64,000 nt of DNA from a virus: the IMG/VR virus record IMGVR_UViG_3300037851_000102, positions 1 to 64,000 of that record; one strand, 5' to 3'. Numbering within the stretch: the stretch's first letter is position 1; each line of letters begins with the position of its first letter. Positions 8,562 to 28,340 of this stretch are shown here, one piece after another. A program made the translations under genes and the position numbers. The notes beneath the pieces are model-generated. The model was not told where the DNA came from and did no database searches. It worked only from the letters and a program-made list of their open reading frames with translations.

Positions 8562-9047
8562 ATGAAACTATTTATGATTTTGATCGCATTTTGTCTGTCA
8601 GCGTGTGGGATCGCATTTGCTCAAGAGGTCGTTGCACCTGTTCCGCCAGTTGTACCTGATTTGCCTGTTGCCTCTTTTTTAGAGCAAGTGTTCGCGGCAG
8701 TGAAGGATTTCGGGGGACTCAGTTGGGGTCTGAAGGTGATCGCTGTATGTACGCTTCTCATTGCCAGCATGAAGGTCAGCGTCCTCAAGCCGTTGTGGGA
8801 CAAACTTGGAGCCTTCAAGGTTCTCGCCGCTCCCGTTCTCGCTCTCGTTATGGGCGTGGTAAGTTTAAGCACAGGCGCGGTCGATGGTAAAATCACAGGA
8901 GCCGCTTTGATGGCTTGGGCGATGGCAGGCGGTGGAGCGATCATCCTTCACCAATTACTCGATGCAATAAAAGAATTGCCAATGGTCGGGCCGAAATATG
9001 ATGCGTGGATTGATCTTGCCAAAGGGTTCTTAGGCGGTAAAAAATAG
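8562..9047 (+). CDS. multi-pass membrane protein (holin-like)
   Basis: Signal-like N-terminus, about 3 hydrophobic helices, basic C-terminus. Confidence 0.5.
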   Translation: MKLFMILIAFCLSACGIAFAQEVVAPVPPVVPDLPVASFLEQVFAAVKDFGGLSWGLKVIAVCTLLIASMKVSVLKPLWDKLGAFKVLAAPVLALVMGVVSLSTGAVDGKITGAALMAWAMAGGGAIILHQLLDAIKELPMVGPKYDAWIDLAKGFLGGKK

Positions 9048-9086
9048 ATTCAAAGAAGTAGTTGCTTTCTTCTTTGCCATGTTGTC

Positions 9087-9115
9087 AGGGCAGGAGTCAA
9101 ATCCTGCCCTTTTTT
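9087..9115 (+). terminator. rho-independent terminator
   Basis: AGGGCAGGA-gtcaaa-TCCTGCCCT followed by a T-run, at the convergence of + and - modules. Confidence 0.85.
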
Positions 9116-9117
9116 AT

Positions 9118-9507
9118 TTAAGCCGCTTTCACAATTTCAAGAAGTTCATCAAAGAATTTGATGTTAAGACGTGTCTCGCTCGCAACGTGTTTGAGTGCGA
9201 TGGCGACCTGTGGGTTTGAAGTTTCAAAAGATCGTGCAGCGTTCTCGATAAGCTGCGCAGAAGCCTCAAGAGAGACCTGTGCGCGTTCAGCCAAGGTCAC
9301 GCATCCATCTTCATCGCTGGTCAATCCTGCGAGAGATTTGAAGTGTGGAAGCTCATTCATCCAACGAAACTGATCGAAGCTCGCAAGATACCGCTCAAGA
9401 ACAGTGCCTTTTGAAACTGCGCGAACAGCTTCAAGATCTGTGTGATCGATATCTGTGCGCTCAAAAATTTCTACCATGTCGAAAACGAGTTCTTTCATCG
9501 CGCCCAT
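9118..9507 (-). CDS. hypothetical early protein
   Basis: ORF coupled to 9507-9839. Confidence 0.55.
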   Translation of the reverse strand: MGAMKELVFDMVEIFERTDIDHTDLEAVRAVSKGTVLERYLASFDQFRWMNELPHFKSLAGLTSDEDGCVTLAERAQVSLEASAQLIENAARSFETSNPQVAIALKHVASETRLNIKFFDELLEIVKAA

Positions 9508-9839
9508 TATTGCACCTTCTTGATTGAAGTTTCGTTGCCAGTCTCGCGAGTGTATTTTGCAGCTTCAGCCTTCGCAGCTTCGAGCGTGTCGAACTCACCA
9601 AGAAACGTGTCGTTGTGATTGTAAAGCTCGAATGAAGCCTGATCGATCTCATCGGCATCGAAATCAGCCAAGGTCAAATTGCTTCGCTCAGTGATCGATT
9701 GAGGACAATCCATCAAGCGCATATCGCAGACCTGAACTAAAACGTAATTGCCGCCATTCTGATCGTCGATGATCTTCACACGCAAATTGCTGTGTGGCTG
9801 ACCTTTGACTCCGTTCATTAAGTAGTATTGTGTGCCCAT
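9507..9839 (-). CDS. hypothetical early protein
   Basis: Directly downstream of a copy of the repeated promoter/RBS. Confidence 0.65.
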   Translation of the reverse strand: MGTQYYLMNGVKGQPHSNLRVKIIDDQNGGNYVLVQVCDMRLMDCPQSITERSNLTLADFDADEIDQASFELYNHNDTFLGEFDTLEAAKAEAAKYTRETGNETSIKKVQ

Positions 9840-9845
9840 ATTTTT

Positions 9846-9899
9846 CTCCTTGTTTAGCCCTATGAATACAGTGTACTACAGTGTATTCTCAAATGCAAG
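9846..9899 (-). promoter_or_regulatory. repeated early promoter + leader, copy 1
   Basis: TTGCAT-17-TACACT plus GGGCTAAACAAGGAG leader; family consensus CTTGACTTTGAGAATACACTGTAGTACACTGTATTCAGGCTAACAAGGAG. Confidence 0.8.
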
Positions 9900-9974
9900 C
9901 GAAAAAGAATGGCGTACAATAAAGAGACAAATGATTTCAGGGTGTTACGAACTGAGACGTAGAAGATGTGTAAT

Positions 9975-10060
9975 AAAAAAGAACCCCTCTGGATCGCTCC
10001 AGAGGGGCTGGTGTGGGCTTAAAGACTCTTGGGCTAACAAGGAATTTTTGCCCGACACCA
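9975..10060 (-). ncRNA. candidate antisense sRNA-1 (targets GGCUAACAAGGA leaders), including its terminator
   Basis: TTGCAA-18-TATGAT promoter (10091-10062); stem TGGTGTcGGGC/GCCCACACCA; loop CAAAAATTCCTTGTTAGCCC; terminator CCCCTCTGGA/TCCAGAGGGG plus U-run. Confidence 0.55.
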
Positions 10061-10062
10061 AA

Positions 10063-10386
10063 TCATAACTTCGCTTTCTTAAATTTTGCAAGTGGCTTCG
10101 CATAGAAACGAATTCTTGGATTCTCAATCGCTTCCATCTTTTTGAAGTACGTTTGCTTATCCACTCCGAACGATGCCTTGAAGCACTTGCCTTCAAAGTC
10201 ACACGTTCCACAATTTGAATCTTCGTTCTCCCAAAAACCAAAACAGCTTTTGGTCTTGTCCTGTTTCACTTCAGTTTTGTGAAATGCCGCTCGGACTATT
10301 GCGGCATTCAGTTGTTCAACCGTTGCATCTTTGGGGACGGCTATCTTATTCGCTTCGCAGTATTGAAGGAGCTTCGTTCTATTCAT
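10063..10386 (-). CDS. small Cys-rich hypothetical protein
   Basis: CFG...CGTC....C putative metal site; coupled to the vWA gene. Confidence 0.6.
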   Translation of the reverse strand: MNRTKLLQYCEANKIAVPKDATVEQLNAAIVRAAFHKTEVKQDKTKSCFGFWENEDSNCGTCDFEGKCFKASFGVDKQTYFKKMEAIENPRIRFYAKPLAKFKKAKL

Positions 10387-10387
10387 A

Positions 10388-12184
10388 TCATCCTTGTTGA
10401 ATTAGTTTGGAGAGCTTTGCCAGTCCCGCTTTCGGAAGCTCATCCACGTCTCGCAGAATGACAAAATCAGGATAAAAATGTTTTACATGATCGGTCTCAA
10501 TTCCAACACCGATGATCTCAATGCCAGATTTTGAAATCAGCTCAATCTTTTTCTTCAGGTCTGTGCAGAGCTTCCGATGATCGCCGTCGCCTGTGGCTGG
10601 CTGTCCGTCTGACAAGACCATTAAGATCTTGCGCTTCTCTTTTCTTTCTGCAAGGCGCTTTGCTGCCCACGCAACACACTCGCCATCTGGATTCTGTGAA
10701 CCGTTCTTGATAGCCTCAAGGCCAAGAAGAGTGTGCGAATCAAAACGCTTGAACACATGAAGATCAAGACGCTCATGCTTGCGATTGAACCGAGTCGAAT
10801 CGGCAAGTGAAGCCGTGTACTCTGAAACTCTGCGATCAGGCTCAGAGCAAAAACCAGTTACTTCAAAAGGAATTTGCAAATCTTTGAGAGCTTCAGAAAT
10901 TGCAATCGCGCTCATCTTTGCGACTTGAATTCTGTGCCCTGCCATTGAACCAGAAAGATCGATCAAGAGTTCAACGGCAACATTGTTCGTTTCAGTGCGC
11001 GTGAATTCTTTGAATGGAGTTCGATATGATCGATCACTCGCAAGGCGAGAAAGATCTCGCGCATTCAGATTGCCACGCTCACGCTCAGTCTTCCACTTGG
11101 CGTTCTCGCGGACTTTGAGAACGCGCTCAAGCGCATTCTTGATTGGAGCGACCTTTGGTCTCACAGAATCTTTCAATCGCGCATAGGACTTGATATCGCC
11201 CTTGCCAGAATGATCGGTCACTTTGTCGAAGCGAGTTGTCGCAGGAATTGAAGTCGCAGTGCCGAACTCAGGAGTTGGATAGTGGCCTGATCCTGGTTTC
11301 ACTTTGCCGAGAGATTTTTTGTCCTCAGCAAGAGCCTTGTCCATCTTCTCTTTCATCATGTCGTGAATCGAAGTGGCGTGTTTGTCGAATTCAGATTTTT
11401 TATCGCCTTCTTTTTCTGTCAGCATCGAGTCGAATTTGGAATCAGCACCGCCAGCGCCAGAATCGTCCCCTTCGGAGTCGTCTTCACCTTCAGAATCTTC
11501 ACCTTCGGAGTCGCCTTCGCCGCCTTTGCCTTTGGCTTTGCTTTCGCTCGAATCACCTTCTTCGCCTTCTTCTTGCTCCCCATCGCCTGATTCCTTTCTT
11601 TCTTCTTCACGCTCTTCAATGATTTTTTTGACAATTTCTTCAGTCTTAACTCGAAGCTCTTCAGTTGATTTACAGTCGTTGAGTTCTACAGCCGCATCCT
11701 TCACAACGTCAACAAATCGCTCGATGTCTTCATCGATGCGTGGTGCGCGACCTTCCATGATATCTCGAACAGCAAGGATTGTACGAATCGGCCAAGGAAG
11801 TCTCGACCAATTCTCTTCGGCCATCACACGCGCTCGCATCTTGTCGTTAAGTGGACGCAAATGGAATGCCGTTCCTGGATACTCTTCTTGCATCAATCGC
11901 TCGATGCGAACATCCTCAACCGCATTCAGCATCTCTTTGTGAAAACGTGTTTTGATTTTTTTGAGAGTCTCGAAGCCAGTGAAGAGACAGTGAGCCGCTT
12001 CGTGGTCAAGATAGCCGTTCAAATCGGCCTTCATCTCTTCATCGATAGTTTGAAAAAACGGAAGCACGATGCGCTTGCCATCGGTGTACGCTTCGTTGCC
12101 TTCAAACAAAACTTCAAGATTGTATGATCGGCCAATGATACGACCGATCTTTTCGAGTGTTGATTCAAAATTAACACGACTCAT
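10388..12184 (-). CDS. CobT-like vWA domain protein (partner of MoxR AAA)
   Basis: N-terminal HEAAH and NAVEDVRIE, acidic linker, MIDAS DLSGSM, VLSDGQP, IIGVGI. Confidence 0.85.
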   Translation of the reverse strand: MSRVNFESTLEKIGRIIGRSYNLEVLFEGNEAYTDGKRIVLPFFQTIDEEMKADLNGYLDHEAAHCLFTGFETLKKIKTRFHKEMLNAVEDVRIERLMQEEYPGTAFHLRPLNDKMRARVMAEENWSRLPWPIRTILAVRDIMEGRAPRIDEDIERFVDVVKDAAVELNDCKSTEELRVKTEEIVKKIIEEREEERKESGDGEQEEGEEGDSSESKAKGKGGEGDSEGEDSEGEDDSEGDDSGAGGADSKFDSMLTEKEGDKKSEFDKHATSIHDMMKEKMDKALAEDKKSLGKVKPGSGHYPTPEFGTATSIPATTRFDKVTDHSGKGDIKSYARLKDSVRPKVAPIKNALERVLKVRENAKWKTERERGNLNARDLSRLASDRSYRTPFKEFTRTETNNVAVELLIDLSGSMAGHRIQVAKMSAIAISEALKDLQIPFEVTGFCSEPDRRVSEYTASLADSTRFNRKHERLDLHVFKRFDSHTLLGLEAIKNGSQNPDGECVAWAAKRLAERKEKRKILMVLSDGQPATGDGDHRKLCTDLKKKIELISKSGIEIIGVGIETDHVKHFYPDFVILRDVDELPKAGLAKLSKLIQQG

Positions 12185-12191
12185 TGATTCT

Positions 12192-12241
12192 CTCCTTGTT
12201 AGCCTGAATACAGTGTACTATGCCGTATTCTCAAAGTCAAG
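12192..12241 (-). promoter_or_regulatory. repeated early promoter + leader, copy 2
   Basis: TTGACT-17-TACACT; GGCTAACAAGGAG. Confidence 0.85.
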
Positions 12242-12247
12242 AGCGGA

Positions 12248-13357
12248 TTAACCGCTCTTCGTGGTCATGTTTCTCACAATGAGACCTTTGATAACTTCGG
12301 CATCTTCGGGAGAGACCTTCGAGAAGATTGATACCTCAGCCGCTTTGAGAGGGTCTTTGAATCGAATAAGATTCTCAGTCCAATCAATCATCCTGCGCAG
12401 AGAGAAAGTGCATTGAACTTCTTCTTTGCGGAAGGCTTCGCGAATCATGTTGCCGACCTTCACAACGGTCACAGCGACAGACTTTGAACCCGCAGGATTC
12501 GCAGCGAGTTTTGGAATTGAATTGATAACAACATTCACTTCTTCTTCAGGCGGAAGATAGTCAATGTAATAACAGCGCCAGCGATCAAGAAACGCTTCGT
12601 TCATGATGTTGGTGCCTTGATACAAGCCACGATATTGAGCCATGCGGCCAACGCCGTTGGCAGTGGCGAACAATCTGAAATTCGCATGAGGCGTTACAAT
12701 TTCATGGCCTTTTTCTTTGAGCATCAATTTGCCTTTTGGCTCAAGAACCGCATTCAACACAGAAAGAATTGCAGGCTCCGCGAAATCCAATTCGTCGATC
12801 ACAAGCCACAAGCCTTCGCGCATTGCCTTTGGAAGAACACCGTCAACCCATACGGTCTCGCCGCCCTTCACAGTCCACAAGCCAACGAAATCACCGATTG
12901 TCGTTTGACCGTTCATGTTCACGCGCAAAACACCTTGATCGATTCGCGCTGCCATCTGTTCAATCATTGAAGTCTTGCCCGAACCTGTGTGGCCGAGCAA
13001 AAGAACTCGACGATTCTCTTCGATATCCATCGCAATCCATTTTGCAGTATCGCTGAAGTGATATGCTGAATTCACAGAAGGCACGAAGTCGCCGCCTGCG
13101 CCCTTTGCGAGCGTCACACCATGAATTGAAAAACCCTTGTCTGTTGGCTTCGTTGCCATTGCTGTCCCCCTGCTTTTTTCTTTTGTATATTCTGGATGTA
13201 TCACGTCGTCCTGATCGAGTGAATACTTGACCATGTATGCCACAAGAGTTCCATCTGGACTCTGAAGCTCATCGGCATGATCGGTTTCAATGTGGTCAAT
13301 GAGGTTGTCTGAACGAAAACCGCAAATCTTACACGTTAAACGCTTTTTGTCTGACAT
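12248..13357 (-). CDS. MoxR/CobS/CbbQ-family AAA+ ATPase with N-terminal C2H2-like zinc finger
   Basis: Walker A GHTGSGKT, Walker B LVIDELD, FATAN, NEAFLDRW, FSLRRM; N-terminal CKIC...H...H. Confidence 0.9.
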   Translation of the reverse strand: MSDKKRLTCKICGFRSDNLIDHIETDHADELQSPDGTLVAYMVKYSLDQDDVIHPEYTKEKSRGTAMATKPTDKGFSIHGVTLAKGAGGDFVPSVNSAYHFSDTAKWIAMDIEENRRVLLLGHTGSGKTSMIEQMAARIDQGVLRVNMNGQTTIGDFVGLWTVKGGETVWVDGVLPKAMREGLWLVIDELDFAEPAILSVLNAVLEPKGKLMLKEKGHEIVTPHANFRLFATANGVGRMAQYRGLYQGTNIMNEAFLDRWRCYYIDYLPPEEEVNVVINSIPKLAANPAGSKSVAVTVVKVGNMIREAFRKEEVQCTFSLRRMIDWTENLIRFKDPLKAAEVSIFSKVSPEDAEVIKGLIVRNMTTKSG

Positions 13358-13363
13358 AAATTT

Positions 13364-13416
13364 CTCCTTGTTAGCCCTTTGAATACAGTATAGTACAATG
13401 TACTATGCGCGTCAAG
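13364..13416 (-). promoter_or_regulatory. repeated early promoter + leader, copy 3
   Basis: TTGACG-17-TATACT; GGGCTAACAAGGAG. Confidence 0.8.
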
Positions 13417-13669
13417 AAATCTTTTTCTTGGCTTTCTTTCGTGGATCTCCATACTTAGCCGAGAACGCTTCCATTCCCATCGCAAGAAGAACCTGAAGAG
13501 CTTCGGTCTTTGTTGGCTCCGCTGCGCCAAGCACAGGTCTCATCTCTGCAAGTTTCTCTTTCATGCTTTCAATAAAATTGTCTTCAAGCTCGTTCAATCG
13601 AAGAGTTGTCATCTTGTTGCGAACCGTCTTTGGATCTTTTAGGGTTTTCATCTTGTCTCCTTCACACAT
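13412..13669 (-). CDS. small ribbon-helix-helix-like DNA-binding protein
   Basis: TTLRLNELE beta-strand/helix followed by TKTEALQVLL helix; basic tail. Confidence 0.45.
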   Translation of the reverse strand: MCEGDKMKTLKDPKTVRNKMTTLRLNELEDNFIESMKEKLAEMRPVLGAAEPTKTEALQVLLAMGMEAFSAKYGDPRKKAKKKIS

Positions 13670-13709
13670 AAGATTCTATGGTATTACAGTGTATTTTTGC
13701 AAAAATCCA

Positions 13710-14759
13710 TCATTTTCTGTAGCTCGCATTGAACGAATCCATATCGTCCCAAATGCTGCCGAACTCGTCAGCGTGAACTTCTTGCTCTGAAATTCCGTGA
13801 AATTCATCGCTGTCTTGAACTTCATGATCGTGATCGTCTTCAATTTCATAGTGAGTACGCGCCACGCCATCGTCAATGTTGCAGTCTGCTCTTCGTGATT
13901 CAGGAATCAAACCGCAGGCGATTCCAGCTTCAATCAGAGTATTGTTGTGGATGTCGAGAACATTCTGAAACTCAGGAGCATAACCGCCAGCCAAGTTGAA
14001 TGCACAGCCAATTTTATTCTCGCGACAGAATTCAAAGACCATGCGATCACGCAATCGCAATTGCTTCTTGGTCAAACGTCCACCGAGCGGGTCGTTAATC
14101 CAAGGGTCAGCGCCAGCTTGATAAATCAAAACATCGACGCGAGAAAAATTCTCTTCAAGAATCTTGCGAAATTGTTTTTTAAAAAACTTCTTCGCGTTTG
14201 AACGATTCACGTTGCTTGAACCAAGAGTCCAATGCTTGATGTATTTAAGATCGAGTTTTTGAATGATGTTGTCGGTGCCGTTGCCATAGTGTTGATCCAT
14301 GTCGAGAATGCCAACAGCGCCGAAGTGCATTGGCGAATACAAGCGAATCATCTGCGCAGCGATCACAAGACCGTTGAACGTGCAGAAACCAGAGGCGCTC
14401 GAATAGCCTGCGTGGTGGAAGCCAGAAGTCAGCGAAGCGCAAATCTCTTTGGTCTTGAATGCGTGGATTGCAGCGGCAGCAAGCGAGCCAGTCGTGTAAC
14501 GCAAAGACTTTGCGACCGAAGGAAGCGTGTTACCGAAACCATTTGATCGACGGCAGGCCAAGATTGCTTCGACATGATCGATCTCATGAGCGAGAGCGAT
14601 GTGAGCGCGTGTGATTGGCTTAAAAGATTTTTGCTCGATTGGCACGTTGAGATTCTGCCAAGAGGCCAACACTTTTGCAGGCTTGCCAGCCGAAGGCGAA
14701 AAAGACGTGTTATCTGTTACCGTTTGCTCATCTCTGTAAAAAACTTTAATTGCTTTCAT
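13710..14759 (-). CDS. histone deacetylase (HDAC/AcuC) family Zn-dependent deacylase
   Basis: GFHHA, GFCTFN, LDMDQHYGNGT, YQAGAD..DPLG, AGGY catalytic motifs all present. Confidence 0.92.
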   Translation of the reverse strand: MKAIKVFYRDEQTVTDNTSFSPSAGKPAKVLASWQNLNVPIEQKSFKPITRAHIALAHEIDHVEAILACRRSNGFGNTLPSVAKSLRYTTGSLAAAAIHAFKTKEICASLTSGFHHAGYSSASGFCTFNGLVIAAQMIRLYSPMHFGAVGILDMDQHYGNGTDNIIQKLDLKYIKHWTLGSSNVNRSNAKKFFKKQFRKILEENFSRVDVLIYQAGADPWINDPLGGRLTKKQLRLRDRMVFEFCRENKIGCAFNLAGGYAPEFQNVLDIHNNTLIEAGIACGLIPESRRADCNIDDGVARTHYEIEDDHDHEVQDSDEFHGISEQEVHADEFGSIWDDMDSFNASYRK

Positions 14760-14765
14760 GCTTTA

Positions 14766-14807
14766 CCTCTTGAATACAGTGTACTACAGTGTATTCTCAA
14801 AGTCAAG
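14766..14807 (-). promoter_or_regulatory. repeated early promoter, copy 4
   Basis: TTGACT-17-TACACT; leader differs (AAGAGGT). Confidence 0.8.
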
Positions 14808-15147
14808 TCTTCCTTCGTGAAATCCATTTATTCTCAAAAACATCGTAATCACCGCTCTGAAGTCGAAGGATTGGCGGGGAGAGAACCTTATCTTGGATCG
14901 CCTTCTCATAAAGAGACAGAAGGGCCAGAAGTTCCATCGACTCCATCTCTCTTTGGTTTTCGGCATTCAACGATTCGTGAATTTTTAAAATTCCGTGCGC
15001 GATAAAACCACGGATTGAAATTTCATCGCCATCTTTCAATTTGATTCTGTAAAACCGAAATTGATCGCCATCATTCTTGATAAAGCGGATCGTGTGAATT
15101 CCGTTTTCGATTGGGATTTGAATTTCTGGAACCTTGGCTCTTCTCAT
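14803..15147 (-). CDS. hypothetical protein
   Basis: Coupled ORF. Confidence 0.55.
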   Translation of the reverse strand: MRRAKVPEIQIPIENGIHTIRFIKNDGDQFRFYRIKLKDGDEISIRGFIAHGILKIHESLNAENQREMESMELLALLSLYEKAIQDKVLSPPILRLQSGDYDVFENKWISRRKT

Positions 15148-15329
15148 AATTTCTCCAGTGCTTCTTTGAGTTCAACCATTTCAGGATTTGCCAAATAATC
15201 GTCGCCCTTGTCAGTAACATAGGGACGGCTTCGATCTCCAGCCGCAAGGCCGCGCTCAACGAGAACCCTTCGACTCACGCCGAAGGGATTAGCTCGTTTA
15301 ATTTTTTGAAGATCTTCTTTTATGTTCAT
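15144..15329 (-). CDS. small protein with C-terminal tag variant (LKEALEKL)
   Basis: Coupled ORF; terminal motif. Confidence 0.55.
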   Translation of the reverse strand: MNIKEDLQKIKRANPFGVSRRVLVERGLAAGDRSRPYVTDKGDDYLANPEMVELKEALEKL

Positions 15330-16195
15330 AGTGATTCCAAAGATTTCATGAAATCACTTGGCTCAACGATTCCGCGCTCAACACGATCTTGAACTTCGCG
15401 AAGTGTAGTCATCACGTTATGAAGTTTTGCGTTGATCGCTCCAGCGCGAGCGCGAAGGTTTTCGCTGTGAATTTTGTACTTCTCAACAATGTCGGCAGCG
15501 CGAGCCATGTCGCCTTCAAGTTGACGCTTGGTGATCGAGCCGTCTTTGAATCGCTTATCGATGTCGGCCACAAGCGAAGCAATGTCGCCAGCGATGTCTT
15601 CAGAGATCGCAGTTGAAAGAGCCTCATGCGTTCCAGCGTTGTCAAAAATTGGAACCCTGTGAAGAGTGGCGGAAGCCTGAAACGCCGTGAACAGTGATTG
15701 CAATCGCTCAAGCATTTTGTCAAAACGCGCATCCACGAAATAGATTCCACCGCCATCGCGCATGGCGACTCCCCATCCTTCTTGGCGAACAATGCGAAGA
15801 ACCAATTGACGAAACTGATTTGAATCGATGGTCTTGGCCGCACGTCTGAACTCTTCTTGGATCAGCGCGTACAATCTTGAATCTGTGTCTTCTGCTCGCA
15901 CAGGAGAAATCACGCCGCTCTTCTTGTTGAGAACAAGGCCAAGCTCGCGATCAAGATTAAGCTCATCGCCTGAAACAACTTCGTTGAACACGGCAAATTT
16001 CACTTCATCGCCAGCGTCACCGAAGCGACGATACAATTTATCATCGCCGCGTGTGATCTTCTTGATTGCCTTGATGAGCGCAGACTTGTAATCGTTGCGC
16101 GGGACAAAGCGATCAAAGCCAAGATCGATGAGCGCATCTTTTGTTGTTTCGAGTTCGTTGATTGACCAGAAAATTAAATCACCTTTGCGTTGCAT
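15326..16195 (-). CDS. conserved phage protein (DUF6744-like, tentative) with C-terminal tag (FMKSLESL)
   Basis: GDLIFWSI start and GGIYFV motif; GGGCTAACAAGGAG leader at 16201-16214. Confidence 0.6.
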   Translation of the reverse strand: MQRKGDLIFWSINELETTKDALIDLGFDRFVPRNDYKSALIKAIKKITRGDDKLYRRFGDAGDEVKFAVFNEVVSGDELNLDRELGLVLNKKSGVISPVRAEDTDSRLYALIQEEFRRAAKTIDSNQFRQLVLRIVRQEGWGVAMRDGGGIYFVDARFDKMLERLQSLFTAFQASATLHRVPIFDNAGTHEALSTAISEDIAGDIASLVADIDKRFKDGSITKRQLEGDMARAADIVEKYKIHSENLRARAGAINAKLHNVMTTLREVQDRVERGIVEPSDFMKSLESL

Positions 16196-16214
16196 ATTTT
16201 CTCCTTGTTAGCCC

Positions 16215-16376
16215 TTAGTTCATCCACTTGGCGAAGCCGAGCTTCACCATTTGTGCATCTGTTAAAATTAAACCTCTGCCATCTGCAAGCCTCACAAGAT
16301 GAACCGTTTGGATTCCCTCTGTGACGCTCGTTCTAATCTTCCCATAGTTCCAACAAATATATTGAACCTTATTCAT
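16215..16376 (-). CDS. 53-aa hypothetical protein (not in ORF track)
   Basis: MNKVQYICW...AKWMN-stop fills the gap and overlaps the upstream stop. Confidence 0.5.
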   Translation of the reverse strand: MNKVQYICWNYGKIRTSVTEGIQTVHLVRLADGRGLILTDAQMVKLGFAKWMN

Positions 16377-16842
16377 TTGAACCGCCTACAGTCGGATGCT
16401 CATGAAAGTATGAACCATTGCCAGCGGGTTTTTGAATCGATGCAGGCGCTCTGAAGTCTGAACCAGTTGAACCGCCGCCAACATTGAAGATCGGATTCAC
16501 GTTGATCGATGGATTGACTGTGACTGTGTTGGTATTGGAAGCGCCGCCATTTTTGGAAGCCTCACGCTCAACTTGCGCCTTGTAATCGGCTGGACGGCCA
16601 GAGAAAACAACTTCGTTGTCTTCAAAAACGATCAAGCGTGGCTTTTGAGTTCCATCGAAATCGACAGCGTACTCGTAAAGCTCGCGATTGCCTTCAAACT
16701 TCTTCTCAGTTGGTTCGCCGAGAATGTCGATCACTTGTTCTTTGCTCATGCCTGCGTCGATCTTATTAAGATCTTTCAACTTCGGCATTGAAGAACACGC
16801 GCTTAGTGCCAGACCTAAAACTATTAAAATTAACTTGTTCAT
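16369..16842 (-). CDS. lipoprotein with SmpA/BamE-like domain
   Basis: Lipobox LSAC; GMSKEQVIDILGEP motif. Confidence 0.75.
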   Translation of the reverse strand: MNKLILIVLGLALSACSSMPKLKDLNKIDAGMSKEQVIDILGEPTEKKFEGNRELYEYAVDFDGTQKPRLIVFEDNEVVFSGRPADYKAQVEREASKNGGASNTNTVTVNPSINVNPIFNVGGGSTGSDFRAPASIQKPAGNGSYFHEHPTVGGSNE

Positions 16843-16848
16843 AATACA

Positions 16849-16897
16849 CTCCTTGTTAGCCTGAATACAGTGTATTCTAATGTACTATGAAAGTCAA
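16849..16897 (-). promoter_or_regulatory. repeated early promoter + leader, copy 5
   Basis: TTGACT-17-TACACT; GGCTAACAAGGAG. Confidence 0.8.
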
Positions 16898-16901
16898 CAG
16901 A

Positions 16902-17348
16902 TTATTTTTGTGTCTTATTTTGATACCCTGTGAAGCTCTTCCACAAATCAACCATTGTCCATCCAACGGGGACGGTGACAGCCATTTGGATCGGCCATCC
17001 CTTTTTTAAGCGATCACTTACTGTGTGGCGATTGCCGCCAATGCGATCTCCCCACTGAGAAAGCGTCAATCTCTCTCCGCCAAACTCGACGAACGTGTTC
17101 GATCTTCTATTGTTTGAATTTTCTTTTGGCGTTGCCCAACGACAATTTGATGGCTCGTAATCTCCATCGTTATTGATTCTATCAAGCTGATAATTTGGTG
17201 AAGGCTTCCTTCCCATGTCTGCAAGAAAGTTCTCAAACTTATTCCAACGCTTGCAAACCTTAATGCCTCTTTCTGAGTAGTATCCTTTCGATTTTACTCT
17301 CTGATTCATGCACATCCATGTGATGCGCTCTGGAGTGTTTTTATTCAT
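16902..17348 (-). CDS. HNH-type homing endonuclease-like protein
   Basis: RGIKVCKRW..FENFLADMG...LDRINNDGDYEPSNCRWAT..N..N. Confidence 0.8.
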   Translation of the reverse strand: MNKNTPERITWMCMNQRVKSKGYYSERGIKVCKRWNKFENFLADMGRKPSPNYQLDRINNDGDYEPSNCRWATPKENSNNRRSNTFVEFGGERLTLSQWGDRIGGNRHTVSDRLKKGWPIQMAVTVPVGWTMVDLWKSFTGYQNKTQK

Positions 17349-18324
17349 CTCTTCTCTTTCTGCTATTTCTTACTTTTGCCGCTCTCAGGTCGCTCCACAA
17401 TTTTTCAGAAGTACAATCCTTAGCATTAAGATCGTCTCGGAATCTATAAAAAGTTGGATGACGCAGCCTTCCCACGATATTGTCAGCCGATCTTTTTGAA
17501 TCTTGGATCTCTTGTGCAAAAATATCCACCACGCGCCCGATGTACTTCTTTGGATTTTTCGCGATATCGTGGCGAATTTTATCATCGAAACCAGATGCGA
17601 ATCCAATCTCGATCAATCGGCCTTCGTGATAAACAGAGAGAGCGATTGAACCGATTGAACCTTTATACTTGCCATCGCCCTCTTTAAAACCAGAAATCAC
17701 ACACGAAACATCATACGACTTCTTCCACTTGCTCCATCCAACGCCGTATGCCTGTCTGATATCTTTGACGATGATTCCTTCGCCGCCTGCGTTCACAATT
17801 TTATTGAAGAACCCTTCGAGATTCACAGTCACTTGTTCGATCACTGTGATATGTGGATTGTTCATGCGCGAAACGACTTCGATCAAAACTTTTCTGCGCT
17901 TCTCAAGTGGTAGCTTGCGGATGTCTTTGCCACGAAACGCTTTGATATCAAAAACGCGATACTTCAAAAGTCCTGAAGATTTTTGCTTGCGAACAGCTTC
18001 CGCAGGCGAAGAGTTCATCACAGAATTCGTGCCCAAGAAATTCTCGGCCACAATTTCGCCATCAAGAACAGTTCCATCAAGACCTTCGTACTCGATGCCT
18101 GTGATATGTGGGACGTTATCAGTGCGATCAACGTGTTTCAAATCAACAGTCGAAACTCTGCGCGAGAGAAGAGTGTTGCCACTTCTGCGCTCATAAGGAT
18201 CGCAAGCGATGTAAAGCACATATCTTGAGCCATCGATTTTTTCTTCAGCGACGTAGTACGGCTTATCAACAATGTCAGGAAGTTTGGCCGTGCATCTTGA
18301 AGGTGCGTACAATTCTGTTTTCAT
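17341..18324 (-). CDS. ATP-dependent DNA ligase
   Basis: KIDGSR adenylation motif, LDGEI, VFDI, EGIIVK, C-terminal OB domain with LRHPTFYRFRDD. Confidence 0.9.
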   Translation of the reverse strand: MKTELYAPSRCTAKLPDIVDKPYYVAEEKIDGSRYVLYIACDPYERRSGNTLLSRRVSTVDLKHVDRTDNVPHITGIEYEGLDGTVLDGEIVAENFLGTNSVMNSSPAEAVRKQKSSGLLKYRVFDIKAFRGKDIRKLPLEKRRKVLIEVVSRMNNPHITVIEQVTVNLEGFFNKIVNAGGEGIIVKDIRQAYGVGWSKWKKSYDVSCVISGFKEGDGKYKGSIGSIALSVYHEGRLIEIGFASGFDDKIRHDIAKNPKKYIGRVVDIFAQEIQDSKRSADNIVGRLRHPTFYRFRDDLNAKDCTSEKLWSDLRAAKVRNSRKRRDE

Positions 18325-18767
18325 AACTTCTTCAGTGCTTTGAGAAATTCTTGCTTCTCATCAAGCTCTGCCTTTCTGACTTCGCGTTTGATATCCATTC
18401 GAGCCGCTGCGCTAATACGCGCATCACGCTCAGGAATTCCAAAAGATTTCTCACGCGCAACGATGAACCCATCCTCAACTGAAATAATTGGCTCGCTCGC
18501 TCGACGATAGCCCTTGGCAAGTTTCTCTCTCACTCTCTTGATCGCTTCGTACTTGTCGAGACGTTGCTCGCCTTGTGGCGGTCTTCCGTTGCGTCCCCAA
18601 GTGACAACGTGTTCGCCTGTCTTGGTATCAATGCGAAGCTCATAAAACTTGTCAGAGCCGCCTTCGCTGTACTCGTAACGGCCAACAGTGGCCGCCGAGT
18701 CTGCATCGATTTCGAGCGCGTATGCTGCATCATGAATGTCTTCAAATCGCTTCTTTTTGATCGCCAT
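18321..18767 (-). CDS. WGR-domain protein with C-terminal tag (FLKALKKL)
   Basis: SDKFYEL...VTWGRNG...KLAKGYR. Confidence 0.8.
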   Translation of the reverse strand: MAIKKKRFEDIHDAAYALEIDADSAATVGRYEYSEGGSDKFYELRIDTKTGEHVVTWGRNGRPPQGEQRLDKYEAIKRVREKLAKGYRRASEPIISVEDGFIVAREKSFGIPERDARISAAARMDIKREVRKAELDEKQEFLKALKKL

Positions 18768-18768
18768 T

Positions 18769-19440
18769 TTACTCTCCTAAGATTGCATCCAAGTCGTCGT
18801 CAGCACTTTTTGATTTTGCAGATTTCGCCTTCGCTTTCGCAGCGGCAGCTTTCGCTTTCAAGAGTTTTGCCTCAACAACGCCTTGAGCATCCGAAGTCGT
18901 GAGCCCTTCTTTTTCGAGCTTGCGAATTTCTTTCTCTTCTTTGGCAATTGCAGATTTTTTTGGAGCCGCTTTTGGCTTTGGCGCAGATTCAGAGAAATTC
19001 TCTTCACACTTCGCTTTGAAATCGCCAGTCGCTTTGAAAGTGAAAGTCTGAGATGCAGATTTTTCTGCAACGCTATTGAAGACCGTGGTCGATAAAGTCT
19101 TCTCAAGCTCTTCAGCTTTGAACGTCGAAACGCACTGAAGAAGTTGATCGACTGTGATCGTGCCATCGTTCACAAGCTCCGCAAGTTTGTCCTTGTCGTA
19201 CTTGTAATTCGAGCGCGAAGAAAGAATGATCGAACCGTACTCGGTCTTGAACCCTTCGCCTTCAGTGATTTCGATGTCGTCACTCTTCTCAATGTAACCA
19301 AGAACTTCGGCCTTGCTCTCTTTGAAAAGATCATCGTACTTCGCAGAAAGAAACTGCTCAGTGAATGCCTTCAAAACCAGAGAATCAAACTCCGCTGGTA
19401 ACTCGACCGATTGCTTATCTGTTTTCTTCTTAATTGCCAT
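18769..19440 (-). CDS. hypothetical protein with Lys/Ala-rich tail
   Basis: RBS; KAKAAAAKAKAKSAKSK segment. Confidence 0.65.
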   Translation of the reverse strand: MAIKKKTDKQSVELPAEFDSLVLKAFTEQFLSAKYDDLFKESKAEVLGYIEKSDDIEITEGEGFKTEYGSIILSSRSNYKYDKDKLAELVNDGTITVDQLLQCVSTFKAEELEKTLSTTVFNSVAEKSASQTFTFKATGDFKAKCEENFSESAPKPKAAPKKSAIAKEEKEIRKLEKEGLTTSDAQGVVEAKLLKAKAAAAKAKAKSAKSKSADDDLDAILGE

Positions 19441-19603
19441 AAATGCTCCCTTCGTCTTCTAATTTTTGTAAACCCATTTCGATTGCTTCCAAGTGAGCAT
19501 CGGCATCTGCGGAAGCCTCAACGGATTCAAGCCAAGCCAAATAATCTGACTTGCATGATTCGCAGAGATCATCACACGAATGAACTTCTTTACATTTGCA
19601 CAT
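19430..19603 (-). CDS. 57-aa Cys-rich protein (not in ORF track)
   Basis: MCKCKEVHSCDDLCESC... starts directly after promoter copy 6 and its RBS. Confidence 0.55.
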   Translation of the reverse strand: MCKCKEVHSCDDLCESCKSDYLAWLESVEASADADAHLEAIEMGLQKLEDEGSIYGN

Positions 19604-19608
19604 TTGAA

Positions 19609-19658
19609 CTCCCTTGTTAGCCTGAATACAGTATAGTACAGCGTACTATCAAAGTCCA
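19609..19658 (-). promoter_or_regulatory. repeated early promoter + leader, copy 6
   Basis: TGGACT-17-TATACT; GGCTAACAAGGGAG. Confidence 0.75.
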
Positions 19659-19991
19659 CTAAAAACTTAAAGTCCATTTACCTCTGTAAAATTCGAGCTT
19701 TCGCGGAACCAAATTGAGACAGATCTGATCTGAGACATCGGTGTGTATTTCTTTCAAAAGAACCGTGACCGTCTTGGTCTCAAAGTCGTCGCGCTCATCA
19801 AGCTCAATTTCAAAAGTGATTTCTTGCTCAGGCACCGTGATGATGCAGGACTTGATTCCCCACTCGCGCATTTCAAATTCAACGCTCCACTTGAGCGTTA
19901 CCTTTTGTCGATAACAGCTTGAAGACTCTGACATCTCAGGAAGTCGGTCGATCAAATCAAGTTCAATGTTTGGTGTTGTGAATTCGTACAT
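19659..19991 (-). CDS. hypothetical protein
   Basis: RBS GGAG; coupled ORF. Confidence 0.6.
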   Translation of the reverse strand: MYEFTTPNIELDLIDRLPEMSESSSCYRQKVTLKWSVEFEMREWGIKSCIITVPEQEITFEIELDERDDFETKTVTVLLKEIHTDVSDQICLNLVPRKLEFYRGKWTLSF

Positions 19992-19992
19992 A

Positions 19993-20322
19993 TTATTCTC
20001 CTTCTTCCATCATGCGATCCTTCCAAGCATCGTAGGCAGCGTCAGCCGCACCTTCACAATAATCTTGATAAGCATCGTAGGCTCGTTCATGCGCAAGTTC
20101 TTCGGCTCGCTTTTCAATCTTTGCTTGCTCTTCTTTTGGGAAGTCTTCGAGCTTGCGCTCGCAATTGGCCGTGTTGTCGAAGATCGATTCGATCTCCCAA
20201 TTGTAATCATCTTCGCAATACGCAGTGACATCGACAGAGACTTCAATCTCGTTGCAAAGATCGTCAGTTGAAAAATGATCTGAATCGAATTTGAATTCGT
20301 ATGTTGACATATTATTCTCCAA
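19993..20322 (-). CDS. acidic hypothetical protein
   Basis: Very D/E-rich ORF with RBS. Confidence 0.6.
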   Translation of the reverse strand: MENNMSTYEFKFDSDHFSTDDLCNEIEVSVDVTAYCEDDYNWEIESIFDNTANCERKLEDFPKEEQAKIEKRAEELAHERAYDAYQDYCEGAADAAYDAWKDRMMEEGE

Positions 20323-20860
20323 TCGCTTTCAGAGCTTCAGAGAAACTCTTTGGTTGTTCGACTTCGCGGCCATAGACTTTTGCTATGGCCTTTTCAATCA
20401 CCGATTTTGGTGCAGGAGTTTGATCTGAATCATATTCAAGAGCGTCCGAAGCCTCATTGCGTGGAACGCCTTGAGCCTTGAGATCAGTAAAAATGCGAAC
20501 GAGATTGTGCCAGTGTTCGCGAGAAACACGCTCTTCAGCCGCAGGAGCAGGACGCTCAGATCGACAGCCATGATAAGAGCCATCGACGTTCAACAACTGC
20601 CAACGACCGCCTTCGCGTGTCCACTTCACTGATTCAGAGCCACAGTATTTACAAGTCGCCTTTTTGCGTGTGCCTGACTTCGACGTAGAAGTTGAAGCCA
20701 CAAAAGCAGGACGCGCTGGACGTGAAGAAGGATAGACAAGATCGGCCAATTGTTCAGCCGTGATCTCGCCATCGAAGCCTTCGTTGACTTCATAAGTATG
20801 CTCGATCTTCTCTTGAATTCGAGCGATACAGATTGCAAGTGCTTGGGTTTTCACTGACAT
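20312..20860 (-). CDS. zinc-ribbon protein with C-terminal tag variant (FSEALKAIGE)
   Basis: CKYCG...W...H.C; follows promoter copy 7. Confidence 0.65.
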   Translation of the reverse strand: MSVKTQALAICIARIQEKIEHTYEVNEGFDGEITAEQLADLVYPSSRPARPAFVASTSTSKSGTRKKATCKYCGSESVKWTREGGRWQLLNVDGSYHGCRSERPAPAAEERVSREHWHNLVRIFTDLKAQGVPRNEASDALEYDSDQTPAPKSVIEKAIAKVYGREVEQPKSFSEALKAIGE

Positions 20861-20866
20861 AGTATT

Positions 20867-20916
20867 CTCCTTGTTAGCCTGAATACAGTGTATTACAGTG
20901 TATTCTCAAAGTCAAG
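20867..20916 (-). promoter_or_regulatory. repeated early promoter + leader, copy 7
   Basis: TTGACT-17-TACACT; GGCTAACAAGGAG. Confidence 0.85.
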
Positions 20917-20932
20917 GAGAAATGAAATTGTC

Positions 20933-21931
20933 TTAAAGCGGGATGGCCGAATCGATAAGTGCGCGAAGTTTCTTGGACTTGTATTGATATGAGCCAGGGT
21001 CTTTTTCATCTGGCAGCTTAACGCCTTTGACCTTGAACCCTGCGGCCTTCAAAAGATCGGCAGCTTGAACCACGCTCGGCGGAGTCTTCTTGCCTCTGCG
21101 AACTCTTGCATCTGTCCACGCATCGCGATCCCAAAGCATCACAATGGTCTTGGCCTTTGTCTTTGTCAGCCACTCCACTTGTTGACCGTGAAGCCTCTTG
21201 CCGTTTGTTGCGACGGCATCTGCGCCGACCTTGGCGCAATCCATGAATCCTTCCGTGATGATGATTGTTTCAAATTCTTTTGCAGAATCATAATTGTAAA
21301 GAATCGGACGGTTTGAAACGCCTTTTGGATTGAGAACCTTTTTAAAATCCTTGTTCTCAGGCTCGTCCCATGTGGCTCGCGCTTGCCAGAATACCAGCCG
21401 CCCGTTCATGAATGTTGGAACAATGATGCGATCCTTCGTGAATCCTGCATCTGAAACTCCCCAATCATGTTTGGCGGCGTACTGCCAAGGAATTCCGCGC
21501 TTCTCAAGATACGGGTGAGGACTTTCAATTGGATTGAATCCATAAGGAAGCTCAACGTCCACCAAGAGATGCTCATCATCATCGTGTGGGTCAGGTTCAT
21601 CGATAACCAGCCGAAGATTCAAGTGCTGGAGCGGATCCAGTGCTTTGCCCTTTAAGAGCTTCACGGCATCTTCAAAAGAAGATTTTGCAAGAGTCTGCAC
21701 CAATCGAATTGTCGATCCAGACCAATCGCAACGGTAACAAATAAACGCTCCCTCTTTAAGATTCAGCCACAGTTTTTTGTGCGTATCTTCAGAGGGCTCA
21801 CCGCGCCTGTGGCACATTGGACAGTTCATGGCGTATTCAATATGATCGACGGCATCGTGAACCTTAAACTGCACGTCGCAATCACCTAAAAACTTATCAA
21901 GATCAAAATTAGGGAATCGATCCAAGCTCAT
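20933..21931 (-). CDS. DNA primase (zinc-binding domain + TOPRIM)
   Basis: CPMC...CYRC, YLEKRGI, IITEGFMD, WDRD, KDPG. Confidence 0.88.
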   Translation of the reverse strand: MSLDRFPNFDLDKFLGDCDVQFKVHDAVDHIEYAMNCPMCHRRGEPSEDTHKKLWLNLKEGAFICYRCDWSGSTIRLVQTLAKSSFEDAVKLLKGKALDPLQHLNLRLVIDEPDPHDDDEHLLVDVELPYGFNPIESPHPYLEKRGIPWQYAAKHDWGVSDAGFTKDRIIVPTFMNGRLVFWQARATWDEPENKDFKKVLNPKGVSNRPILYNYDSAKEFETIIITEGFMDCAKVGADAVATNGKRLHGQQVEWLTKTKAKTIVMLWDRDAWTDARVRRGKKTPPSVVQAADLLKAAGFKVKGVKLPDEKDPGSYQYKSKKLRALIDSAIPL

Positions 21932-23289
21932 AATCTTTTTTTCTTATCCATCCACTCAAAGTGATCGTGCTTCCAATCTTTCTCGCCATACAGAGGAGAG
22001 TAAAAAATCATTCGCTCGTAGTTTGTAATCAGAGTCATCGTTTGATCGGTATCGTTTGATCGATAAATATCAACGTGAAATCTCAAAATGCCGTTCGCCT
22101 TCTCCGCTGGAGTTTGGTTCAGCGTTGCAACGAGATCCGCGATTCTGACTTTTTCATAAGATTCAGAAATATCTTTCGCACGAAGAAGATAAGTATCATC
22201 TGGTTCTTTCGATGGTCGTTGCGCCTGCGAAGCTGTCCAGATGGCGTAATTGCCCATCACTGCGAGCTTCTTCACATTCCTGTAAACTTCCGTTTGATCG
22301 TGTCGCTTCTCCAGATTTGAATCGCCAGATTTCAAAAGATCCGCGTAGTCAATCACCACAAGATCAGGATTGCGGCCAACAGCCTTGAGTTCTTTGATTT
22401 TGGATTCGATATCAAACACCGTGTAGTTCCAGTGCTTGTTCATTGGAATGAGATCCAAGCGATCTTTCATCTTCTTGGTCATCCTGTTGATCTTCTCCTG
22501 CTCCTCTTTTGTGATCTCATCTTTTTCAAGTCGAGCGTATTCAATGTTGGTGAGCCTTGAAAGATAACGAAGAACAGTCTGCTCGGTCGTGCCCTCAAGA
22601 ACGAAGTGAGCAATGCGGCCAAAGCCAGAAGTGAGAGCAGAGGCTCCCATGTGGATCAGACCAATAGATTTACCCTTCTTGGGCTCGGCTAATAAAATTC
22701 CAAGCTCGCCCTTTGTGATTCCACCGCGCAGAATTTTATCAAGCGTTGGAATTAAAGTTGGAATCTGAATCGAGTGCTTCATTGAATCTGCAACAAAGGT
22801 CTGACGGATCTCTTCAAAATTCTGAACTGGAATGATGGCATCATCTTCAAAAGAAATTGTGTAAAGCTCGTTTATGCCTTCCATCGCACACTCGTAGGCT
22901 TTGCCATGTTGTTTGGCGTTCCAGAATGTTTGAGCCGTCATGAAAACATCAACGAACGCACATTTCTTGGCGTACTCGGTAAGTTTCTCTTTCATGAAAT
23001 CTGGATTCTCAACACGAAGCTCAGAAACTTTCTTGGCGTAGGCTTTAATCAGGCGACGCTTGGATCGATCAACCGTCTTCAGGCGATCTTCAATTTCAAC
23101 AAACGTGAGAAGCTCGTTCTTTTTCAGATTCTCTTTGATTTGCTCAAAGACATATTTGTGAGCTTCTGAATAAAGTCGTTCAACTGGAATGTAATCTGAA
23201 ACTTTTTTAGCAAAAGAAAAATCTCGCAGCATAAGCGAGATCATTTGATCTTGGAACTCCTGCCCAAATGAAAACTCTATCTTGCTCAT
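21928..23289 (-). CDS. replicative SF4 helicase (DnaB/T4 gp41-like)
   Basis: AEPKKGKS Walker A, LEG, VVIDYADLL, WTASQ, ISESYEK. Confidence 0.88.
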   Translation of the reverse strand: MSKIEFSFGQEFQDQMISLMLRDFSFAKKVSDYIPVERLYSEAHKYVFEQIKENLKKNELLTFVEIEDRLKTVDRSKRRLIKAYAKKVSELRVENPDFMKEKLTEYAKKCAFVDVFMTAQTFWNAKQHGKAYECAMEGINELYTISFEDDAIIPVQNFEEIRQTFVADSMKHSIQIPTLIPTLDKILRGGITKGELGILLAEPKKGKSIGLIHMGASALTSGFGRIAHFVLEGTTEQTVLRYLSRLTNIEYARLEKDEITKEEQEKINRMTKKMKDRLDLIPMNKHWNYTVFDIESKIKELKAVGRNPDLVVIDYADLLKSGDSNLEKRHDQTEVYRNVKKLAVMGNYAIWTASQAQRPSKEPDDTYLLRAKDISESYEKVRIADLVATLNQTPAEKANGILRFHVDIYRSNDTDQTMTLITNYERMIFYSPLYGEKDWKHDHFEWMDKKKRL

Positions 23290-28236: not shown

Positions 28237-28340
28237 CGTTCTTCTCCTGCCAAAAAATTAAGTCGCTGTCCCACAGTAAATTTAGTTCAATAACAGGAGA
28301 GTTCTTAAAGCCAACCCTAAAAAGTTGGCTTTAATTTTTT
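28237..28340 (+). ncRNA. candidate antisense sRNA-2 (targets GGGACAGC leaders), including its terminator
   Basis: TTGCGA-17-CATTCT promoter (28202-28230) with extended -10 TG; stem TCTCCTG/CAGGAGA; loop CAAAAAATTaagTCGCTGTCCC; terminator TTAAAGCCAAC/GTTGGCTTTAA plus T-run. Confidence 0.55.

Follow-up and report, generated by a model that had tools for sequence, protein, structure and literature searches.

The window analysed here covers the opening 64 kb of an IMG/VR virus record that is 110,388 bp long and rated complete; the phage is uncultured, and the DNA runs that match the window come from freshwater metagenomes. The minus strand carries the genes located at approximately 9.5–25.7 kb, including an operon that reads, in minus-strand order, cobS-like AAA+ gene (13357-12248), cobT-like vWA gene (12184-10388) and gp107, followed after 2 nt by a hairpin (hairpin 1) and then by a terminator. 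The cobT-like protein gives Pfam matches to CobT and CobT_C. The last gene of the operon, gp107 (10063-10386, minus strand; stop codon TGA at 10065-10063), encodes 107 amino acids and has six to seven homologues at 51–61% identity, with four invariant cysteines (CFGFW...CxTC...C) and a basic tail; it has no match in Pfam or PHROG, and the protein atlas gave no usable lead. No sign of lysogeny was seen in the region studied. The early block also encodes a protein with a BamE-like domain (16369-16842, minus strand), which suggests a Gram-negative host.

Hairpin 1 begins 2 nt past the gp107 stop codon. Its 5′ arm, UGGUGUCGGGC, occupies 10050-10060 and its 3′ arm, GCCCACACCA, 10009-10018 (both minus strand), forming the stem TGGTGTCGGGC/GCCCACACCA (10060-10050 / 10018-10009) around a 31-nt loop (10019-10049, minus strand), within which a weak inner stem leaves UUAGCC as an apical hexaloop. 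The 5′ side of this loop carries UUCCUUGUUAGCCC (10031-10044, minus strand), the sole antisense copy in the genome of a leader found in front of early genes, hereafter the anti-leader. An intrinsic terminator (9975-10008, minus strand) follows hairpin 1 with no spacer and consists of an 11-12 bp GC-rich hairpin (10008-9983) and then UCUUUUUU; a terminator scan counted 12 pairs, seven of them GC, and the tail CTTTTTTATT, that is, the GC-rich stem-loop and U-run of an intrinsic terminator. Compared with shuffles, the whole element folds with a z-score of −6.3 and hairpin 1, taken by itself, with one of −4.3. After the terminator comes the next stereotyped promoter, at 9898-9863, which makes the element the 3′ untranslated end of an early operon.

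The leader itself is a short tag, GGCTAACAAGGA(G), that heads five minus-strand genes exactly and two more as variants. Exact copies of GGCTAACAAGGA lie on the minus strand at 12193, 13365, 16202, 16850 and 20868, a copy with one mismatch lies at 19611 (minus strand), and the variant at 9846 has one extra A; 0.2 matches are expected by chance, and seven were reached in 0 of 100 shuffles. ATG starts 5–8 nt past the end of each minus-strand copy. The tagged leaders, all on the minus strand, are GGCUAACAAGGAG for the cobT-like gene (12192-12204; 598 aa), which comes after a stereotyped promoter (12205-12240) and lies at the 5′ end of the transcript ending in the hairpin; GGGCUAACAAGGAG for the cobS-like AAA+ gene (13364-13377; 369 aa); GGGCUAACAAGGAG again for a DUF6744 gene (16201-16214; 289 aa), here as an internal ribosome-binding site with no promoter; the leaders of a 157-aa gene with the BamE-like domain (16849-16861) and of a 182-aa gene (20867-20879); the variant GGCUAACAAGGGAG for a 57-aa ORF (19609-19622); and the variant with one extra A, GGGCUAAACAAGGAG, for a 110-aa gene just downstream of the terminator (9846-9860).

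Seven minus-strand genes are preceded by a stereotyped sigma-70-like promoter, TTGACTTTGAGAATAC...TACACTGTATTCA (TTGACT-17-TACACT), at 9863-9898, 12205-12240, 13380-13415, 14771-14806, 16862-16897, 19623-19658 and 20880-20915. The distance from its −10 hexamer TACACT to the tag is 7 nt in five of the seven promoter-linked copies and 10 nt in the other two; judged from this spacing alone, the tag would lie at, or within approximately 10 nt of, the mRNA 5′ end. Each of the two also occurs without the other: the tag stands without a promoter at 16201, behind a stop codon, and the promoter stands without the tag at 14771-14806, where it has a different leader and drives a histone-deacetylase-family gene (13710-14759, minus strand). 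In the stereotyped promoter, the spacer and −10 region make up a near-palindrome that has a direct repeat of TACACTGTA and resembles a built-in operator.

On the plus strand, GGCTAACAAGGA occurs once, at 10032-10043 (10031-10044 with the G), and no further copies were found in either orientation in the whole 110,388-bp genome. Read as minus-strand RNA, the anti-leader is complementary to the GGGC-type leaders (13364 and 16201) over 13 Watson–Crick pairs plus one G-U and to the aGGC-type leaders over 12 Watson–Crick pairs plus one G-U. Much of what had been claimed in an earlier, sequence-only reading of this DNA thus holds: the leader shared by seven early genes (five exact, two variants), its single opposite-orientation copy, now confirmed across the 110-kb genome, the placement of that copy in the loop of a stem with a terminator immediately behind, the complementarity of the minus-strand RNA to the leaders, and the independence of leader from promoter at 16201, for which 14771-14806 supplies the converse. 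A reading of the plus-strand copy as the actual leader of a plus-strand gene was rejected: no plus-strand promoter lies upstream, the sole nearby start is a TTG opening a 6-codon frame, and the relatives have no ORF at that spot. A search of 9000-22000 on both strands with Rfam cmscan (E ≤ 1) returned no family.

The sequence-only reading had further proposed that the RNA is an independent transcript of approximately 80 nt with its own promoter, TTGCAA-18-TATGAT, and this part is not supported. The sequence is present, as a sigma-70-like match at 10091-10062 (minus strand) that would start transcription just before the hairpin, but it is a 9/12 match with an 18-nt spacer, a grade no commoner than in shuffles (2 found in the region versus 1.4 expected). 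It is made of codons for the conserved gp107 C-terminus PLAKFKKAKL, with the −10 hexamer overlapping the stop codon, it bears no likeness to the seven stereotyped early promoters of the phage, and the same scan found no promoter-like site at that spot in five relatives. The site is probably incidental, and we regard an independently transcribed sRNA gene driven by it as quite improbable. A chance-level promoter, its absence from relatives and a hairpin 0–8 nt past the preceding stop codon point instead to an RNA that is most simply the 3′ end of the cobT–gp107 mRNA, possibly released by processing. RNase E prefers RNWUU sites, and such a motif lies 2–4 nt before the hairpin in four of six lineages (background, 0.023 per position); as a lead found post hoc, it hints at the release of a 3′ fragment of approximately 85 nt.

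Related loci were fetched from IMG/VR and JGI metagenomes via alignments of gp107 and the CobT-like protein, revealing five further distinct lineages with the element: G002 (L126 and identical copies, 108 kb), G001 (L127, 104 kb), G003 (L154, a 50-kb fragment) and the short contigs L128 and L132. Megablast of the window against the GenBank phage collection found no close relative, tblastn of gp107 found no match there, and CobT-like matches reached at most approximately 34% identity. An IMG/VR scan with the CobT-like protein as sole query found nothing, a scan for the exact 14-mer leader gave only scattered, chance-like single matches, and searches for the promoter-plus-leader pattern gave nothing or G003 alone. 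Contigs from four DNA runs were short and near-identical, with no informative variation in the element.

The gene order cobS–cobT–gp107 is conserved in the relatives, and all five have, 0–8 nt past the stop codon of the gp107 homologue, a hairpin and then a terminator hairpin. In G003 the hairpin overlaps the stop codon, with the gp107 frame (L154:5545-5865) running into the hairpin and stopping inside the loop, an arrangement in which gp107 translation and hairpin folding could be coupled. Across the six lineages, the stem has 8–11 bp and the loop 23–33 nt, the anti-leader is on the 5′ side of the loop, and the terminator hairpin lies 0–2 nt past the hairpin, with z-scores of −3.2 to −6.3. 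The six stems share no sequence, yet when they are compared by anchoring on the loop-closing pair, every one of the eight positions compared is paired in each of the six, and two to four pair types occur per position. A MAFFT alignment of the six elements breaks the structure, the stems and loop lengths being unrelated, and was set aside in favour of this anchoring.

The motif on the 5′ side of the loop reads UUCCUUGUUAGCCC in this window, CUCUCCGUUUAGCC in G002, UUCCGUUUAGCC in L128, CGUUUUAGCC in both L132 and G003, and CCUUUGUUUUGGC in G001, with a conserved seed core, (G)UU(U)(U)AGCC, except for the compensated UUUUGGC of G001. A sixth relative, L133, has neither a hairpin after gp107 nor a GGCUAA-type leader on its syntenic early genes. 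On the short contig L132 (L132:2140-2166), the 5′ arm and anti-leader, taken as their reverse complement, resemble a complete leader with Shine–Dalgarno sequence and ATG (GGCTAAAACGTGAGAGAGGCAAAGATG); complementarity to the leader of that phage, which lies beyond the contig, may therefore extend through the Shine–Dalgarno sequence into the stem.

Covariation between loop and leader was scored in four genomes: this window's phage, G001, G002 and G003. Their leaders (GGCUAACAAGGAG in this phage, GGCUAAACGGGGAG in G002, GGCUAAAACG in G003 and GCCAAAACAAAGG in G001) differ by substitutions and in the length of the A-run. Against the cobS leader of its own genome, each loop has a longest run of 13, 10, 10 and 13 Watson–Crick pairs, respectively (14, 14, 10 and 13 with G-U), while cross-genome combinations of loop and cobS leader reach longest complementary runs of 4–7. 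Each loop tracks the leader of its own genome in four of the four scorable genomes, so the check that had been proposed for the original idea, covariation of loop and leaders in related phages, came out positive (10–14 nt own versus 4–7 cross). Among 20,000 shuffled loops, the observed run was reached by none for this window, none for G002, 13 for G001 and 323 for G003, the last figure being weak because the 10-mer is A/U-rich.

In each of the four genomes, the antisense leader copy is unique and occupies the same syntenic spot, the hairpin loop just after the gp107 homologue. The 104 kb of G001 contain three exact copies of GCCAAAACAAAGG, one in front of cobS, one in front of a divergent early gene with a different promoter, and one antisense in the loop. 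In G003, GGCUAAAACG stands, behind TACACT promoters, in front of cobS, cobT and two other genes, and it appears once antisense in the loop; the −10 hexamer and its 7-nt distance to the tag are the same there as in this window. In G002, the complementarity of the cobS leader GGCUAAACGGGGAG to the loop extends over 14 nt, one G-U included, and no other leader matches the loop there. The number of leaders matching the loop is seven in this phage, four in G003 and two in G001. The 10-nt complementarity of G003 ends just short of the Shine–Dalgarno sequence, so direct occlusion is not universal.

Double hairpins are common at operon ends, and many hairpins contain pyrimidine-rich strings resembling an anti-Shine–Dalgarno sequence, which would be in keeping with an ordinary 3′ stabilizing hairpin and terminator whose loop match is accidental or a relic of an inverted promoter/leader cassette. 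However, going by 4^13 and the genome length, a given 13-mer is expected only approximately 0.002–0.003 times in a genome as large as this one, three further genomes have the match at the same position but in different sequences, and the flanks are unlike the promoter cassette; we therefore give this explanation almost no credence.

The recurrence could also reflect DNA rather than RNA, with the 13-bp tag acting in either orientation as an operator or recombination site for a phage protein and the inverted pair flanking cobS/cobT–gp107 serving looping, a roadblock or inversion. The tag does sit at approximately +1 to +13 of early promoters, a typical operator position, and a protein and its sites can also co-evolve. 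Such a site would nevertheless leave unexplained the tag at the promoter-less ribosome-binding site 16201, and it does not account for an inverted copy that is always in an RNA hairpin loop with covarying stems, between stop codon and terminator. Moreover, G-U pairs bridge the differences between leader and loop in G002 and in this window, and tolerance of G-U pairs is a property of RNA. We rate a DNA-level site as very unlikely. Overall, neither a DNA-level site nor a free-standing sRNA gene nor coincidence is as likely as an RNA–RNA interaction.

The unique, syntenic antisense copy, the stem kept despite sequence turnover, the compensatory changes, the use of G-U pairs and the joint absence of hairpin and leader in L133 all point to an RNA–RNA interaction. 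A pairing of this kind would explain both the compensatory substitutions and the matched A-run lengths, and since it explains these features, we read the element as a 3′UTR-borne antisense regulator.

Predicted energies are consistent with such pairing. When the loop was scanned as a duplex against every 30-nt window of the 110-kb genome, the tagged leaders came out on top, the self-complement aside, at −23 to −27 kcal/mol against a background of −8.5 ± 3.3. The whole element paired with each 36-nt leader at −21.7 to −28.7 kcal/mol. Within the 20-kb locus of G002 (L126), the cobS leader ranks first; in G001 (L127), the leader of the divergent unit does. Under cofolding, in which hairpin 1 must be opened, the duplex still forms with most leaders; the net gain is 6–17 kcal/mol in six of the nine tested and approximately 3 kcal/mol for the G001 cobS leader. 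The cobT leader gains only 3.6 kcal/mol and forms no duplex in the minimum-energy structure, and a tag-less control leader with the stereotyped promoter gains 2.5 kcal/mol via unrelated contacts.

From the observed anatomy, conservation and covariation, we consider it reasonably probable that the 3′UTR-borne antisense RNA represses translation of its own operon and, in this phage, of six more early genes by pairing with their leaders and ribosome-binding sites. A narrower version would confine the pairing to cis: the 3′UTR anti-leader would meet only the 5′ leader of its own cobS/cobT–gp107 mRNA, limiting translation or setting the lifetime of the message, and the likeness of the other leader copies would have some unrelated cause, for instance a promoter/leader cassette held in common or demands of translation efficiency. 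There are bacterial precedents for this. In the icaR mRNA of Staphylococcus aureus, an anti-Shine–Dalgarno motif in the 3′UTR pairs with the message's own Shine–Dalgarno region and controls translation and decay (PMC3868564), and the hbs mRNA of B. subtilis provides a precedent for 5′–3′ UTR interaction (PMC5737220). Here too, a 3′UTR motif is complementary to the Shine–Dalgarno region of its own mRNA, with the operon's own leader matching in four of four genomes, always at the head of the hairpin-terminated operon; G002 has no match beyond it, and a distant cobT–cobS phage (L157) has a 3′UTR with an 8-nt complement of its operon leader.

Against a switch acting only in cis, the two ends are 2.2–3.3 kb apart, such that ribosomes would load on the leader long before the 3′UTR is synthesized, and it gives no reason for identical tags on two to seven other units, including the promoter-less site 16201 and the divergent unit of G001 with its different promoter, which is what a trans-acting RNA predicts. 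The element also departs from icaR and hbs, which are bacterial, single-gene and cis-acting, in that the complementarity reaches 8–9 nt 5′ of the Shine–Dalgarno sequence into a private tag, the display is in a hairpin loop, and the tag is on several transcription units. We hold the cis-only version to be unlikely, though a serious contender. The single match in G002 indicates that the conserved core target is the element's own operon and that a multi-gene regulon is not a conserved feature. Control of a whole gene class by one RNA in trans, as originally proposed, would fit this phage (seven leaders), G003 (four) and G001 (two).

For the 3′UTR-borne antisense regulator, the following course can be envisaged. 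The hairpin loop in the 3′ end of the cobT-like/gp107 mRNA would display the 14-nt anti-leader, which would pair with the leader tag GGCUAA... and the adjoining Shine–Dalgarno sequence. Pairing would probably start between the apical UUAGCC and the GGCUAA at the beginning of the leader and then spread over the ribosome-binding site. The resulting duplex would block 30S binding and might also be a site for a double-strand RNase; in G003, it would lie directly beside the Shine–Dalgarno sequence instead of occluding it. We infer that the RNA accumulates, whether within the mRNA or after processing to a 3′ fragment; its effect would most likely be repression rather than stabilization, and it may reach leaders on other transcripts. 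Because the RNA is made within the early transcript, the outcome would be delayed negative feedback on early protein synthesis.

A second hairpin and terminator of the same build lie at 28243-28335 on the plus strand, with the stem TCTCCTG/CAGGAGA and a 44-nt loop containing TCGCTGTCCC. The complement of TCGCTGTCCC, GGGACAGC, has seven copies in the 110-kb genome, one of them antisense in this loop and five directly before start codons (26120 on the minus strand, 43993, 51795 and 28688 on the plus strand, and 13161 on the minus strand, internal to cobS). Together, the 28243-28335 hairpin and GGGACAGC may constitute a second leader/anti-leader pair; G001, G002 and G003 lack a homologue of the gene upstream of this hairpin. 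In the distant phage L157, GTCTCCTC lies in a single-stranded linker between a stop-codon hairpin and a terminator (L157:6955-7015) and is the exact complement of that phage's cobT leader, GAGGAGAC; its CobT is 28% identical and its gene order is cobT–cobS, and L157 may represent a separate, independent occurrence of this principle on the same two genes. L158 carries a shorter CFGF protein after cobT. More speculatively, the early programme as a whole could be timed by RNA, with a stable 3′ fragment silencing all messages that bear the private 5′ tag and the second, orthogonal hairpin at 28243-28335 doing so for the second tag, GGGACAGC, in a multi-channel ‘address code’ for translation that works by base pairing; we put this forward tentatively, as an idea that could well be wrong.

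The nearest phage precedents are the c4 RNA (Rfam RF01695), an antisense RNA reportedly described by Citron and Schuster in 1990, and the related P4 CI RNA. In P1 and P7, c4 is co-transcribed with its target and has loops antisense to the ribosome-binding site, in pairs that differ between the sister phages (PMC12197685). The present element likewise has a loop complementary to the ribosome-binding-site region of a co-transcribed gene, with a pair that differs between related phages. Unlike c4, which lies upstream of its target and is cut from the leader by RNase P, it is a 3′ end beside a terminator; c4 controls one antirepressor operon in lysogenic immunity, whereas the tag here is common to seven early genes, and the RF01695 covariance model gives no match here.

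CpxQ, SroC and DapZ are 3′UTR-derived base-pairing sRNAs of enterobacteria. Like RNAs of this type, the element lies at an mRNA 3′ end and shares the intrinsic terminator of its parent, it has a conserved seed upstream of the terminator, with leaders of its own genome as the top-ranked partners, and there is a possible RNase E-type site at its 5′ border. Virulent Pseudomonas phages have 3′UTR-derived ncRNAs as well (PAK_P3 ncRNA1/2), with no assigned targets (PMC10914365); there, the RNA was seen and its targets are unassigned, whereas here the targets are readable from the sequence and the RNA is predicted. Class-wide early shut-off via ribosome-binding sites is known from T4, where it is exerted by the RegA repressor and the RegB endoribonuclease (PMC3014915). 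Those effectors are proteins, whereas the one proposed here would be an RNA recognizing a private leader tag by base pairing. A limited literature search found no published phage RNA that pairs with a leader common to a class of the phage's own early genes. To our knowledge, post-transcriptional control in lytic phages is known almost only via proteins (RegA and RegB) or single-target immunity RNAs (c4, sar and OOP).

What sets this system apart is that the partners are legible in the sequence and that evolution has already run the compensatory-mutation experiment in four lineages. If the proposed pairing is true, phages can mark a class of messages by means of a private leader and control it through one RNA, and the four lineages would provide four natural, orthogonal leader/anti-leader pairs usable as translational switches. 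It would also yield a search rule for uncultured phages that needs nothing but sequence, namely to inspect operon ends for a hairpin that contains a repeated leader in antisense. Should the early programme indeed be timed by RNA, this would be an RNA counterpart of RegA and RegB of T4.
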